A stretch of 64,000 bases of DNA from sequence record PZ445524.1; one strand, 5' to 3'. Origin of the DNA: a phage. Below, piece by piece: positions 266-63,403 of the stretch; the stretch's first letter is position 1; the number at the start of each line of letters is the position of its first letter. The notes under the pieces are model-generated. The model ran no database searches and was not told the origin of the DNA. It saw only the letters and a program-made list of their open reading frames with translations. Made by a program: the position numbers and the translations under genes.

Positions 266-726
266 TAGTAAAGGTCCTCAGAGTAAAGTTCTTTTTCACT
301 ACCACCACGTTCAATACGTACTTGTCCAGCGTAAGTTGCAATAATCATTGCTTCTTCACGTGTCCAATAATTACTATATTGGTCAATAAACCCTTGGTCA
401 TCATCACAAACTTGCTGAGTAACTAATTGAGGTTTAACTACATCTAAAACTTCTGCCATATCTTTAGAATAATGACGAGCACCTGGAATAATAAGAGTTC
501 GTCCATCTTTTAATTTAAAACGATTAGCTGCGCAAACAATTCGTCGTTGATACTTTTGATTTTCATCCCAATATGCAGTCTGCCAACAGATTTCAGGAAC
601 TTCTTTCAGAATATCTTCTTCTGTGCATTTATAACCATGCGCTTTAAATTTTTCAACAAGACTTTCTGGAGTTTCACGAGATAAAGGAACATTCAGCATT
701 TTTAAACGATTGATAAATGGGTTCAT
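265..726 (-). CDS. hypothetical early protein (153 aa)
   Basis: ORF track; same strand and tight packing with neighbours. Confidence 0.6.
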
Positions 727-1052
727 TTAAACCATCCTTTAATACGCTGCCACAAAGTTTTCTGCTGAGCTTTGTTAACACCAATTGAACGAATAACCGG
801 TTGAGATTCCTGGAATTCTTTATAATCGGCAAGGTAAATTTCGTAAGCTGCATCCGTAAATGAACTTATCGCTGCCATAAAATTATTGCGAATACCTACT
901 GGAGCATCTTTACTTTCACGAATAATCATGTATTTACCAGTCTTAATCTTTACAATAGTTCCAAGATAAGCTCCATGGTACCAAATATCCCAACCCTCTT
1001 GAGTAGGTTCTGCGCAACGACGAAGTTCATTAACGATTTCTAACTTGTTCAT
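723..1052 (-). CDS. hypothetical early protein (109 aa)
   Basis: ORF track; 4-nt overlap with downstream gene. Confidence 0.6.
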
Positions 1053-1062
1053 TATTTATTCC

Positions 1063-1698
1063 TCACAGTTCAGATGCTACAGTGATTACAGCTTCAATGT
1101 TTTCTGCCGAGCGTTTAATGTCAAGATACACATTACCGTTTTTAGCGATTTTACATGACATTCCGATATCAGTAAATTTCTGAATATGATGTTCCATCAT
1201 TTTGTATCCAAAAATTCGCATATTTCCATTGTTGTTAATTTCAAAATTACGAATTCCGTTAGTGCGTTTTTCTAAAATAGCAAGATAATTACTACGATAA
1301 ATTTCAACCTTTTTAAGAACAAATCCATTTTTATCTAAAAGTTTTAACACGAGGTCTTTATCTTCTTCCATATCGGAAGTAATCTCGCGAGCTTTACGAG
1401 TTGCTCGTTTTTTCAGTAGTTCCGGAGCATTTTCCTGTGCGTATAAAGTAGCTGCATTTGAAATAATATCCTGAGCTTCACCTGTAATGATTAATCCATC
1501 ACCAGATTTCTCCACCAGGCCTTTTTTAATCAATACCCCAATATTACTATTAACTACTGCGTTACCTAAATCTGGATGCACCTCACGAACTTCTGCAGCT
1601 GTAATGAAATCTTTCTTAGCAATGGTAATTAAAATCGTAGCAGTTTTTTCATTCAGAACATCGTTAGAAGCTTTGATGATGTAAGTTACTTTAGACAT
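1063..1698 (-). CDS. motA: MotA, activator of middle transcription (binds MotA box)
   Basis: 211 aa ORF; sequence recognised from memory as T4 MotA; lies downstream of gene 52 as in T4; preceded by early promoter/leader motif. Confidence 0.9.
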   Translation of the reverse strand: MSKVTYIIKASNDVLNEKTATILITIAKKDFITAAEVREVHPDLGNAVVNSNIGVLIKKGLVEKSGDGLIITGEAQDIISNAATLYAQENAPELLKKRATRKAREITSDMEEDKDLVLKLLDKNGFVLKKVEIYRSNYLAILEKRTNGIRNFEINNNGNMRIFGYKMMEHHIQKFTDIGMSCKIAKNGNVYLDIKRSAENIEAVITVASEL

Positions 1699-1739
1699 TT
1701 TCTAATCTCCGTAATTCTGTATCAGTAGTTGATAGTTGT

Positions 1740-1769
1740 ATAGTACCACAGTATGCTTTGGTTGTAAAC
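1740..1769 (-). promoter_or_regulatory. early promoter (GTTTAC -35, TGg-TACTAT -10) with conserved leader, upstream of motA
   Basis: minus strand reads GTTTAC-N18-TACTATACAACTATCAACT...GGAG-ATG; same module repeated at other sites. Confidence 0.6.
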
Positions 1770-1795
1770 CGTTTTGTGAAAAAATTTTTTGAAAT

Positions 1796-1822
1796 AAAAA
1801 AAGGGAGAGCCTCGGCTCTCCC
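1796..1822 (-). terminator. rho-independent terminator (GC hairpin + U-run on minus strand)
   Basis: minus strand GGGAGAGC-CGAG-GCTCTCCC followed by TTTTTTT; directly after stop of small gene at 1828. Confidence 0.6.
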
Positions 1823-1827
1823 TAAAA

Positions 1828-1977
1828 TTACTGCATGAATGTGATAACTATCATGATAACACGTTGAATTCCGAACGCAAGAAGACCTCCTGCTACGGCT
1901 GGAACAACACCTAACCCCGCCAGTAAAATGCTACCAGATACTAATGCAGCGCTTGTAATACCAATGAATGGACTCAT
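1828..1977 (-). CDS. small membrane protein (49 aa)
   Basis: hand-translated: MSPFIGITSAALVSGSILLAGLGVVPAVAGGLLAFGIQRVIMIVITFMQ; ATGA start/stop overlap with gene 52; below track size cut-off. Confidence 0.5.
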   Translation of the reverse strand: MSPFIGITSAALVSGSILLAGLGVVPAVAGGLLAFGIQRVIMIVITFMQ

Positions 1978-3302
1978 TTGATTTCCTCTAAATCTTTGGT
2001 GTATTCTGTAACTACATCAGTAGTTTTCCAATATTCGTTTTCTTCTTTTTTAGCTTTAGCTTCTTCAGCAAGTTTCTTCGCTTCATCGGAAGTCATATGA
2101 AAAATATTCATTCCAACTAGTTTATCAACATAAGAAGAATACATATCGATTTTCGAAAGTTCTTCGGTCAGTTCTTTACGAGTTTTACCCTGTACAACGA
2201 TTTCACCTGAAATTACCTTCTTAATGAAATGTGCCTTGGCAAAGGCTAAACGAAAAGCTGACTCAGTTTCTTTAATTTTGTTATCAATTCGTTTTTGGAC
2301 ATAAGTTTTACGAACTTCAACGAAGTCTTTAATTAAATCGACTACGTTATCGTAAACTTGTAGTTTTCCTTTCTCATTAATAACCGTAATATTCTGGGAA
2401 CGACGCTCAATCAACCCGAAGTCTTTCATAATTTTTGCATGGCGTTCTTCTTCGTTATCGCTCAAAGAGTATTCTTTGCGGAATTTAACTTTGAAGCCAA
2501 AGCCATGCTCACCACAAGCATCATCCCATGTAATGAAGCCTTTATCTTCAAGCGGGTCTAAGATTTTACTCACATAAGTTTCACGATCATACTTATACGG
2601 AATCTCAGTGATATGCATTTGAGTTCGTGAAGTAAACTTGTATGTTCCACGAATTTCATATTGCCCATCAATTTCAACGACTTCACCACGAAATTCTGGG
2701 AATTCTACTTTCGGTTTAGTTACTTTCTTTCCTTGAAGAGCTTGCAGTACAGCTTTCTTAACAGAAGAAACACTATGAGGAAGAATGTAAGTTGCATAAC
2801 CAGTTGCAATACCGGAAACGCCATTAAGAAGAACAGTAGGAATAACAGGCAAATAGAAAGCAGGCGGAATGTGTTCTTTATCTTGATGTACCGGAGCATA
2901 TTCAGTATCTTTATATACGTTATAGAAATTTTTACTTACACGAGCAAAAATATAACGACTTGCTGCTGCCTTTTGGACAGTACGAGAACCAAAGTTTCCT
3001 TGACCATCTAATAGAGGAAAGTTATTATTCCAAGTATTAGCCATCAAAGCGCCCGCATCTTGTGCAGAGTTTTCGCCATGATGATATCCAAGGTCCGCTA
3101 CACCACCTGCGATAGAAGCGAGTTTGTGAAACTTATCTTTATTTCCTCGTGCCAAATCAAGAGCTCGAGCAATAACAAATCGTTGAACTGGCTTAAATCC
3201 ATCAATCATATTTGGAATGGCACGATTTTCAACCGTGTACATAGCATAAGCCAATGCTTCATTATCAATGATACTTTTTAAATCGCGATTATTCAGTTGC
3301 AT
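1974..3302 (-). CDS. 52: DNA topoisomerase II medium subunit (GyrA-like)
   Basis: 442 aa, matches T4 gp52 length; GyrA/ParC-type N-terminal region (PNMIDGFKPVQRF); position beside motA and ndd. Confidence 0.95.
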   Translation of the reverse strand: MQLNNRDLKSIIDNEALAYAMYTVENRAIPNMIDGFKPVQRFVIARALDLARGNKDKFHKLASIAGGVADLGYHHGENSAQDAGALMANTWNNNFPLLDGQGNFGSRTVQKAAASRYIFARVSKNFYNVYKDTEYAPVHQDKEHIPPAFYLPVIPTVLLNGVSGIATGYATYILPHSVSSVKKAVLQALQGKKVTKPKVEFPEFRGEVVEIDGQYEIRGTYKFTSRTQMHITEIPYKYDRETYVSKILDPLEDKGFITWDDACGEHGFGFKVKFRKEYSLSDNEEERHAKIMKDFGLIERRSQNITVINEKGKLQVYDNVVDLIKDFVEVRKTYVQKRIDNKIKETESAFRLAFAKAHFIKKVISGEIVVQGKTRKELTEELSKIDMYSSYVDKLVGMNIFHMTSDEAKKLAEEAKAKKEENEYWKTTDVVTEYTKDLEEIK

Positions 3303-3439
3303 AAATTTACCATACTAGTGAATGTAGTGCCATAATAACATCAGAAATGAAAAGCACGACTTGAATTAATCCGAACATTACTCCATAATATAGTGCTACC
3401 AATAAAGTAGCAAGGGCTAATGAATAGCCCAAGATTTTC

Positions 3440-3598
3440 TTAATCATTAGTAGATAACAACACAAATGTTAAATATGCACACATACCCTGGGCTAAAGCT
3501 TGTGAAAACACACTGCTAGCATCGATACAGATAGTTAAAACACATGCTACTATCCAACAAATAAATGAAATAACTCCTAATAATTTTGCGATATTCAT
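3440..3598 (-). CDS. small membrane protein (52 aa), ac-like
   Basis: track ORF 3440..3628 trimmed to ATG at 3598, which is preceded by GAGGAG SD; single hydrophobic helix; at the position of ac/52.1 in T4. Confidence 0.5.
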   Translation of the reverse strand: MNIAKLLGVISFICWIVACVLTICIDASSVFSQALAQGMCAYLTFVLLSTND

Positions 3599-3608
3599 AA
3601 TATTCTCC

Positions 3609-3764
3609 TCAACTATTTTTAGAACCAATGTACGCGAATAATGATAAAATCGCTAATACGCCCTGAGCTGATGCTTGCAAAAATACTGAAGTTTCTCCAG
3701 TTATTACTGTTCCGATGCATAAAAAGAACCAACAGAAAAAGGCTATACCGTGAACAAATTTCAT
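3609..3764 (-). CDS. small membrane protein (51 aa), paralog of 3440..3598
   Basis: hand-translated MKFVHGIAFFCWFFLCIGTVITGETSVFLQASAQGVLAILSLFAYIGSKNS; shares the SVF.QA.AQG motif with its neighbour. Confidence 0.5.
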   Translation of the reverse strand: MKFVHGIAFFCWFFLCIGTVITGETSVFLQASAQGVLAILSLFAYIGSKNS

Positions 3765-3771
3765 ATTTTCC

Positions 3772-3852
3772 TCACTGGCGTCCGAAGACGCCTTTGGTTT
3801 TAAGATTGTTACGATAGAACTGCATCACATGTTCGTTATGGAAATTACTCAT
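3772..3852 (-). CDS. stp: Stp peptide (26 aa), activator of the host PrrC anticodon nuclease system
   Basis: hand-translated [26 protein letters not shown], which I recognise as T4 Stp; lies between ac-like genes and ndd as in T4. Confidence 0.8.
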
Positions 3853-4307
3853 TAATATGCCTGCAAAACAAATTTAAAGTTATCAGCCAACATACGGTTC
3901 ATTTCTTCAAGTGTTTGATACTCAGAATGATGATTACGAGTAAACGCCAAAGCTAACTGACCTTTTCCAAATCCCGTCGTCAGAGGTTTCATCTTAGAAG
4001 CAGGCAGATAAAACACTGTGTATGGAACATTGTTATTTGCAATAGTACGCGCAAGTTGAGACCGGCGTTGACGAATATGACTTAAAACCGCACTGAATCC
4101 TTGCTTAGAACGTTGATTACCTACATAAAATCGTGCAGACACACATGGATTACTAAATGGACGACCATCTAATTTACTTACTAAAAAGTAAAATCCAGGT
4201 TTAGATAAAATATCTTTATGCGGAGTTCCTAAAAACCATTCACCACCCTTGATTGTACCAATAACAGTTGCGCCTGCATTGTTCAGATCAGTAACAGTCA
4301 TGTATTT
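3852..4307 (-). CDS. ndd: Ndd nucleoid disruption protein
   Basis: 151 aa from [11 protein letters not shown] (track ORF extended 17 codons upstream); length and position match T4 ndd. Confidence 0.85.
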
Positions 4308-4370
4308 CATATTAATTTCCTCTAAATTATTTTCTACTCCAAGGCCGCATGAATACACACGGCCATTAAA

Positions 4371-4586
4371 TTAATCGTCGCAGTCGACGCTCAATTCCCA
4401 AAACTCTTCTACAGTATAAGTTTCAGTATCATTTTCAATACAGAAACGTTCATTACTGTTATTTGCTAAAGTAGCATTAACTGTCGGTTTCTCGCTAGTG
4501 CTCTTAAGAGGTGAAATACGAATTAACTGATCACCGTTATCTAAACAGAAAATTTCACCAACTTTTACATCTTTAAAACTTTTCAT
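4371..4586 (-). CDS. hypothetical protein (71 aa)
   Basis: ORF track. Confidence 0.55.
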   Translation of the reverse strand: MKSFKDVKVGEIFCLDNGDQLIRISPLKSTSEKPTVNATLANNSNERFCIENDTETYTVEEFWELSVDCDD

Positions 4587-4701
4587 AATTCACCTCAAGG
4601 AGTATAAAATCCAAATGCAGTTGTTGACCATCCCATCCAATACGGAAAATTTGCACCAATGTAAAACATGAGAATATAAAACCAACCGCTCAGCAAATTC
4701 A

Positions 4702-63398: not shown

Positions 63399-63403
63399 TA
63401 ATG

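Follow-up and report, generated by a model that had tools for sequence, protein, structure and literature searches.

In bacteriophage T4, the small genes stp, ac and 52.1 lie between ndd and gene 52, in the reference order ndd-stp-ac-52.1-52. All three are classed as early transcripts, and each carries the entry 'none' in the proteome column of the same compilation (PMC9697503 supplement); peptides so small and hydrophobic can be expected to escape mass-spectrometric confirmation. With its N-terminal 18 residues, Stp inhibits type Ic restriction enzymes (EcoprrI, EcoR124I), and in prr+ hosts this inhibition unmasks PrrC, which cleaves tRNA-Lys, damage that T4 repairs with Pnk and Rnl1 (PMC3014915). 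Loss of the C-terminal eight codons of Stp lowers activity only moderately, and this tail is polymorphic (PMC3014915). Ac causes the acriflavine sensitivity of T4, with resistance following from its loss or from the substitution G38R, and expression of Ac in Escherichia coli sensitises the cells to acriflavine and ampicillin (bioRxiv 10.1101/2025.06.30.662393). That Ac blocks the AcrAB-TolC pump is the current hypothesis (bioRxiv 10.1101/2025.06.30.662393; echoed in PMC13250531); older work on Ac proposed increased uptake instead of an efflux block.

We compared with these systems the corresponding segment of a 64,000-nucleotide stretch of phage DNA (PZ445524.1), hereafter the window. The cluster found there is the early-gene ndd-stp-ac-52.1-52 segment of a Tequatrovirus (a T4-like phage), encoded on the minus strand, in a variant with two ac genes. 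Overall, we consider it very probable that the region combines the known Stp, a pair of Ac proteins in tandem, a CUUCGG hairpin acting at the RNA level and a two-ac state of old standing. In gene order, the segment begins with ndd (3852..4310, minus strand), the upstream neighbor of stp, assigned to the nucleoid disruption protein from its sequence and from the Ndd label in identical or near-identical phages. It ends with gene 52 (1974..3302, minus strand), the DNA topoisomerase II medium subunit, a downstream anchor recognized from its ORF and the annotations of relatives. A sequence search with 3300..3870 matched 561 phage records, among which the Escherichia phages ECML-134 and ADUt are 100% identical over this region. 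The window departs from T4 mainly in one clean block of 166 bp, absent from T4, that consists of exactly one ac gene, here called acA, and the spacer behind it.

The two adjacent genes of 51 and 52 aa and the 26-aa ORF upstream that had been proposed in a first-pass annotation were all recovered on the minus strand. Its remark that none of them appears correctly in the ORF track applies to acB, listed only as a 62-aa ORF extended to a TTG (3440..3628), and does not apply to acA and stp, both of which are correct at a 20-aa cut-off. More generally, the genes are missing or wrong in a length-filtered ORF track and not in the public GenBank records of near-identical phages: both ac genes are labelled 'acridine resistance' in ADUt and KNP5, Stp is annotated in Bas41 and KNP5, and a 46-aa ORF corresponding to 52.1 is annotated in ADUt, KNP5 and Bas41. 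This last gene, the third micro-membrane gene of the cluster, had been overlooked in the first pass. The stp-ac-52.1 cluster is therefore already known and already in public annotation, and the two-ac arrangement is a minority form of an essentially ordinary locus. No description of a tandem ac pair was found in the literature searched, and a comparison of PST with T4 (PMC4122927) does not mention ac, though the PST genome is of the tandem type.

The 26-aa ORF (stp, 3772..3852, minus strand), whose ATG shares one base with the TAA stop codon of ndd (TAATG), had been recognized as the peptide that activates the host PrrC anticodon nuclease, and this identification is secure. The protein is 100% identical to T4 Stp, carries the Stp label in Bas41 and KNP5, and matches PF08133, 'Anticodon nuclease activator family', over residues 1-26 of 26 (75.3 bits, with the cut-off at 25; 2e-21), as well as phrog_6763 over its full length (4e-21). 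The identity with T4 extends through the N-terminal 18 residues that hold the EcoprrI-inhibiting and PrrC-activating determinants. By homology, this Stp would be a cytoplasmic peptide that blocks type Ic enzymes such as EcoprrI, unmasking the PrrC tRNA-Lys anticodon nuclease. A search for the T4 tRNA-repair gene pnk (pseT) gave no match in the window, which probably reflects a location elsewhere in the genome or an imperfect query sequence.

Codons 21-26 of stp encode a hairpin (3777..3792, minus strand) in which a stem of 6 bp, GGCGUC/GACGCC, carries a C(UUCG)G tetraloop. Read 3792..3777, the hairpin is present in both the minimum free energy and the centroid folds, in agreement with the first-pass proposal. 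The hairpin 31-mer alone folds at -12.2 kcal/mol (z=-3.07); the full 126 nt around it show no advantage in folding over their shuffles (z=-0.09), so only the local hairpin stands out. The CTTCGG hexamer is enriched in the window, with 33 sites against 12.7 +/- 3.2 expected, and 15 of these form hairpins with a stem of at least 4 bp, every one of them on the minus strand, which is the sense strand of the genes. A crude ORF model places 11 of the 15 outside ORFs, mostly a few bases past a stop codon; the stp hairpin is instead located inside the 26-aa ORF, with 59 nt between it and the ndd stop upstream and 12 nt between it and the acA start downstream. It has the UUCG loop, the C:G closing pair, the stable stem and the sense-strand orientation of the classic T4 C(UUCG)G class, to which it belongs and which was reportedly treated by Tuerk and colleagues in 1988. 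The history of such hairpins has been summarized (PMC4371310). A search of Rfam with 3000..4600 (E<=1) returned no family. We rejected the stp hairpin as a member of the PeSL (promoter-early stem-loop) elements, having found no promoter-like site adjoining 3777..3792 on the minus strand, and as a Rho-independent terminator in the sense direction, its tail AGTGAGGAAA having one T in 10 positions and no U-tract. Some GenBank records annotate a terminator at the stp hairpin. Phages without stp have a different hairpin and a T-run at the same position between ndd and ac.

Downstream of stp are acA (51 aa, 3609..3764), a spacer of 10 nt (3599..3608) and acB (52 aa with an ATG start, 3440..3598), all on the minus strand. 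The paralogy suggested in the first pass from a shared SVFxQAxAQG motif is well supported by pairwise alignment. The motif is present in both proteins, as TSVFLQASAQG in acA and SSVFSQALAQG in acB; BLASTP aligns them at 43% identity over 40 aa (E=6e-10), and their Smith-Waterman score of 85 was reached by none of 20,000 composition-preserving shuffles (23.8 +/- 4.8, maximum 55). Each matches phrog_2501 over its full length (4.9e-26 for acA and 3.7e-25 for acB). A profile search of 5.8 billion proteins places the Ac family in 23 clusters, essentially all in T4-like genomes of about 165-170 kb, many of them tagged with PF26944, a newer Pfam family. The invariant columns of the family are, in acA numbering, W12, T19, V27, Q30, Q34 and G35, the last occupying the position of G38 in T4 Ac, and the invariant core W..T..SVFxQAxAQG is kept in both acA and acB. 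Both genes also have the location typical of the family: upstream of gene 52, with stp (or ndd) on one side and 52.1 on the other.

The earlier description of the two proteins as single-helix peptides was not upheld. An AlphaFold2 model of acA, built from a 22-sequence alignment, has two helices (residues 2-22 and 27-50, mean pLDDT 85.8) that meet at G-E-T-S, with the shared SVFxQAxAQG segment beginning helix 2, giving a predicted two-helix membrane hairpin, which the hydropathy profile supports as hydrophobic. A published ESMfold model of T4 Ac agrees with two helices (bioRxiv 10.1101/2025.06.30.662393). A Foldseek search of the PDB with the acA model gave nothing significant (best E=9, to PsbZ). 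The third small gene, 52.1 (46 aa, 3307..3447, minus strand), encodes a predicted membrane protein that matches PF24129 (DUF7396) over its full length (81.9 bits against a cut-off of 27) as well as phrog_3595, and differs from T4 gp52.1 by one residue. It was rejected as a third Ac paralogue, its scores against acA and acB lying below the shuffle mean.

Comparison with T4 was decisive for the identity of the second gene. acB is the orthologue of the acridine sensitivity protein, identical to T4 Ac (51 aa) except for one additional Thr, which is inserted three codons before the stop, ahead of the C-terminal ND. Phage PP01, with the same Thr variant, is still acriflavine-sensitive (bioRxiv 10.1101/2025.06.30.662393). 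Acriflavine sensitivity is on record for T4 Ac and this Thr variant only. From its family membership, acA, which represents the A-type of the family, would be expected to work like Ac, both in acridine sensitivity and in membrane insertion. As helical hairpins of about 51 aa, acA and acB would be inserted in the inner membrane of the host at an early stage of infection, where they may raise the intracellular concentration of acridines and other drugs, hypothetically by blocking AcrAB-TolC; acA may add to the effect of acB or aim at a different membrane partner.

The first-pass annotation assigned a GGAG Shine-Dalgarno (SD) sequence to each of the two ac genes. This is correct for acB, which has GAGGAG (3610..3605), and acA has the shorter GAGG (3773..3770). 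The acA SD (3770..3773) overlaps the stp stop codon, the acB SD (3605..3610) overlaps the TGA stop of acA (3609..3611), and the start of 52.1 overlaps the acB stop via ATGATTAA. acA and acB would be translated from one early polycistronic mRNA, each being read from its own SD, and 52.1 would be coupled to acB through the ATGATTAA overlap.

To place the two-ac form among related phages, we classified fetched loci with an Ac HMM, in a census based on the GenBank phage collection; a search of IMG/VR with the Ac alignment gave six loci only. Tandem loci with both an A-type and a B-type gene are those of the window, ADUt, Bas41 and KNP5. Only a B-type gene is present in T4, G10400 and four IMG/VR contigs, and only an A-like gene in RB51, RB32, JY01, MN01 (Gaprivervirus), F2, phi25-307 (Mosigvirus), and KP179 and Shark_ER15 (Jiaodavirus). 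Counted by nucleotide matches to the acA-acB junction (query 3560..3650), the tandem form occurs in 51 of 424 matching records. This agrees with the 48 records that encode acA at 95% protein identity or more and with the 51 records in which at least 80% of the 571-nt region is covered. The acA protein is 100% conserved in 40 records and intact in about 48-51. The spread of A-only loci across Mosigvirus, Gaprivervirus and Jiaodavirus marks the A-type (TGETSVF...) as the widespread form and T4 Ac (CIDASSVF...) as the atypical one, which is divergent, specific to Tequatrovirus and derived. Two loci, L013 and L014, have a more complex order: stp, an A-like ac, a 52.1'::stp' remnant in which the hairpin and SD occur a second time, a membrane ORF of 53 aa that is unrelated, and 52.1. 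The conserved flanks of the region behave like recombination points for a cassette of small genes, a pattern akin to the modular shuffling reported in T4-type phages (PMC2839356, PMC4122927).

Several lines of evidence bear on how the two-ac state relates to the single-ac states. Against the A-type orthologues of RB51, RB32, JY01 and MN01, acA has a dN/dS of 0.21-0.56 and behaves as a live gene under purifying selection. acA and acB share 54% nucleotide identity with a dS of about 3 (saturated), beside flanks that are 98-100% identical to T4, and this synonymous saturation implies that the pair did not arise from a recent duplication in situ. The acA-acB spacer was tried as a degenerate 52.1 start, which would have marked a duplication unit, and this was not supported, since only 7 of 16 bases match and 22% of shuffles do equally well. 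In T6, fFiEco06 and SV76 (T2-like), Stp has 27-28 aa and consists of residues 1-18 followed by NFGILG(S/F)KNS. The last 18 nt of this T2/T6-type stp (ggttctaaaaatagttga) are identical to the 3' end of acA and are followed by the window-type spacer GAGGAGAATAtTATG and acB. We read this tail as the scar of an in-frame deletion that starts at stp codon 19 and reaches into the end of acA, which implies that the tandem state predates these phages. In T4, the junction GAGGAAAATATGAATAT joins the SD region of acA to the coding sequence of acB at a shared TATGAA; this fits a deletion of acA through TATGAA microhomology, of which it would be exactly the expected product. The two-ac state is thus probably ancestral to both the T4 and the T2/T6 states, each of which would be an independent deletion derivative, a direction of change that rests on junction sequences from few genomes.

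The opposite direction would make the single ac of T4 ancestral and the tandem form a recent acquisition, in which an A-type ac from an RB51/RB32-like phage was inserted beside a T4-type acB during co-infection, by illegitimate or unequal recombination. Possible donors and recipients both occur, as the A-only genomes of RB51, RB32, JY01 and MN01 and the B-only genomes of T4 and most Tequatroviruses; flanks nearly identical to T4 around a pair saturated at synonymous sites would be expected for mosaic exchange; and the locus does recombine, as the duplicated stp-hairpin-SD module and the unrelated cassette of L013 and L014 demonstrate. We nevertheless find a recent acquisition distinctly unlikely: T2/T6-type phages keep the end of acA in frame with stp together with an identical acA-acB spacer, so the tandem must be older, the T4 junction is the exact product of a TATGAA-mediated tandem deletion, and B-type genes are seen in the downstream slot only. 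One might also regard acA as a redundant, decaying duplicate that has no function of its own, is tolerated and is heading for loss, in line with its absence from about 88% of matching Tequatrovirus records and its removal by at least two different deletions. This seems very improbable for an intact ORF with its own SD, invariant at the protein level in 40 records, that retains all family-invariant residues and shows dN/dS below 1 along the A lineage, and whose type is the only ac gene in several genera. An extension of our preferred reading, in which two ac genes are ancestral to the T4/T2/T6 clade, is possible and is put forward tentatively: acA and acB would have diverged in function (for example as a hetero-oligomer, or toward different RND pumps or membrane complexes), the stp 3' hairpin with the SD on the upstream side and the ATGATTAA start of 52.1 on the downstream side would serve as conserved recombination flanks of an exchangeable cassette of micro-membrane genes, and the variable C-terminal tail of Stp would be a mere by-product. 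If true, the classical single-gene genetics of T4 ac would describe the remnant of a two-component system.

For the stp hairpin, the choice lies between an element acting in the mRNA and an incidental product of coding sequence or of signals on the other strand. Two Stp lineages with differences at 6 of their 26 residues both keep the GVFGR codons, among them four wobble positions whose bases have to pair; across them, stem changes are C-to-U only, with a G.U pair kept, and one lineage has a UUUG loop. Since the C-terminal tail of Stp is largely dispensable, the retention of these codons points to a constraint at the RNA or DNA level, in a set of sequences that is much too small and varies too little to support a covariation test. 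Such a constraint would not make the hairpin essential, as it is missing from T2/T6-type phages and carries the altered loop in one lineage. A hairpin without RNA function, whether a by-product of the Stp-tail codons (GVFGRQ) or an intrinsic terminator of antisense (late-direction) transcription, would account for its location within an ORF, a place that most CUUCGG hairpins of the window do not share, and for the viability of T2/T6-type phages without it. When the palindrome is read on the plus strand, the T-rich TTTGGTTTTA follows it, with a terminator-like predicted score, and the terminator label of some GenBank records would fit an antisense role as well. This explanation strikes us as rather unlikely, because the GVFGR codons are conserved across Stp lineages although the last eight codons of the protein are largely dispensable (PMC3014915), CUUCGG hairpins are found exclusively on the sense strand of the window, and no antisense promoter or transcript has been documented at the hairpin. 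The sense strand, with its single T in 10, does not make a classical terminator either. An RNA-level element for 3'-end formation or stability is the most likely role: placed in the final six codons of stp, at the site expected for an intercistronic hairpin, it would be an mRNA 3' end, a stability element or a barrier to processing, and the dispensable C-terminal tail of Stp would be largely its translation.

The new part of these results is small. It consists in the probable ancestry of the tandem form, the standing of T4 Ac as the atypical paralogue and the likely origin of Stp tail variants as deletion scars. Stp and Ac are textbook T4 genes, and Ac is now being revisited as a possible efflux-pump blocker. 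T4 Ac is atypical of its own family, and the A-type is present across Tevenvirinae genera; roughly one sequenced Tequatrovirus in eight has both types, the BASEL phage Bas41 among them. In such tandem phages, acriflavine genetics and ac-based counter-selection may differ from those of T4, and resistance may need two hits. The proposed deletion scars would also account for the known polymorphism of the Stp C-terminus.

Set beside known systems, the stp hairpin shares with the C(UUCG)G hairpins of T4 the UUCG loop with C:G closure, the G+C-rich stem and the location on the sense strand of early genes. Most other CUUCGG hairpins of the window are intercistronic, several of them with a U-tail, whereas that of stp is within an ORF and has none. 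E. coli AcrZ is a 49-aa inner-membrane protein with a single helix that binds AcrB and acts on AcrAB-TolC. Ac is of similar size, and the target of AcrZ is also the proposed target of Ac, but Ac is predicted to have two helices instead of one. A relation of AcrZ to Ac or 52.1 was rejected, as no sequence similarity was detected (best E=5.5). PeSL cassettes resemble the present locus in that their small genes, variable and non-essential, lie between short conserved sequences with a regulatory role, at which indels and swaps have their break-points (PMC2839356, PMC4122927); they differ from it in that the break-points here are SD-ATG and GAGTAAT microhomologies, without an early promoter by the hairpin.

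The closest counterpart remains the T4 locus itself. T4 Stp is the same 26-aa protein at the same site, with an ATG overlapping the ndd stop and with ac directly downstream, and its last codons contain this CUUCGG hairpin as well; the stp DNA differs from that of T4 at two bases only, both synonymous, and the protein at none. T4 ac has the SD that belongs to acA in the window (GAGGAAAA), whereas acB in the window has a GGAG-containing SD. acA is about 43% identical to T4 Ac and has in common with it the invariant residues and the two-helix architecture; it ends in ...GSKNS with its own stop codon, whereas T4 Ac overlaps 52.1 as acB does. acA is of the A-type lineage, which provides the sole ac gene of RB32, RB51, Mosigvirus, Gaprivervirus and Jiaodavirus, whereas T4 has the B-type.

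In T6, fFiEco06 and SV76, Stp is of the T2/T6 type, 27-28 amino acids long (approximately positions 432..520 of each locus), and consists of residues 1-18 of Stp fused in frame to NFGILG(S/F)KNS, a tail derived from acA, the first of the two tandem Ac-family genes of the window. The CUUCGG hairpin is absent at stp in all three phages, and the gene is followed by a spacer of the window type and then by acB. This fusion, as the scar of a deletion, accounts for the polymorphism already known at the C-terminus of Stp. The record of the T2-like SV76 leaves the ac CDS unannotated, and codon 11 of ac is a nonsense codon (TCA to TAA, giving MNIAKLLGVI-stop); given this codon, the sequenced stock is an ac-null mutant and is presumably acridine-resistant.

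Two 170-kb T4-like contigs from IMG/VR (L013 and L014) contain a second copy of the module comprising the stp 3' end hairpin and Shine-Dalgarno sequence (SD), joined to a 52.1 remnant at GAGTAAT microhomology (1413..2090). The module is followed by an unrelated 53-aa membrane ORF (MIIIVFIELITAIVC...MIKND), which it would drive and which overlaps 52.1 in the same manner as ac, an arrangement that we describe as cassette-like. A predicted membrane ORF of 51-57 aa (M..YVFLMALM.../MRTFFVMGYLFVLALL...) lies in the ndd-ac interval of L007 and L018 (Jiaodavirus; 737..910) and of L014 (1247..1420), where it replaces stp or sits just ahead of it, and is a further variable micro-membrane gene of this locus.

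On the + strand, antisense to stp, positions 3777..3802 comprise a palindrome, GGCGTCCGAAGACGCC, followed by TTTGGTTTTA, with an intrinsic-terminator score, and in some GenBank records (e.g. G10400) a terminator is marked here. F2 and the Mosigvirus phi25-307, both of which are without stp, carry in their ndd-ac intergenic space (approximately 850..900) an AGGCCT...AGGCCT hairpin with a T-run after it, at a position matching the stp hairpin of T4-type phages. The window is strongly enriched in C(UUCG)G hairpins (33 CTTCGG sites observed, 12.7 expected); on the minus strand, hairpin 5' ends lie at 63399, 60003, 47322, 44955, 43684, 38975, 37026, 29928, 23624, 13015, 10485, 6693, 6460 and 3792. 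All hairpins whose stem is 4 bp or longer lie on the sense strand of early genes, most with a stop codon directly 5' and only some with U-tails.

Searching with Stp by tblastn gave weak matches to residues 1-19 (53-78% identity, E 0.02-0.8) in many non-T4 phage records of approximately 37-50 kb, from Salmonella, Klebsiella and E. coli phages (H101-H110), and Stp also matched phrog_28068 (5.5e-5). These matches may represent Stp-like anti-restriction peptides beyond the T4 group, or may be due to chance. A Logan assembly encodes an 81-aa predicted protein (P0013) that bears the Stp and Ac families (PF08133 and PF26944) together and is either an stp-ac fusion by read-through or frameshift or a gene-calling artefact.

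The motif GGAG is the target of the RegB endoribonuclease. The acB SD in the window, GAGGAG (3605..3610), includes this motif, whereas the SD region of T4 ac, GAGGAAAA, lacks it, so that RegB-dependent control of ac may differ between the tandem and single arrangements.
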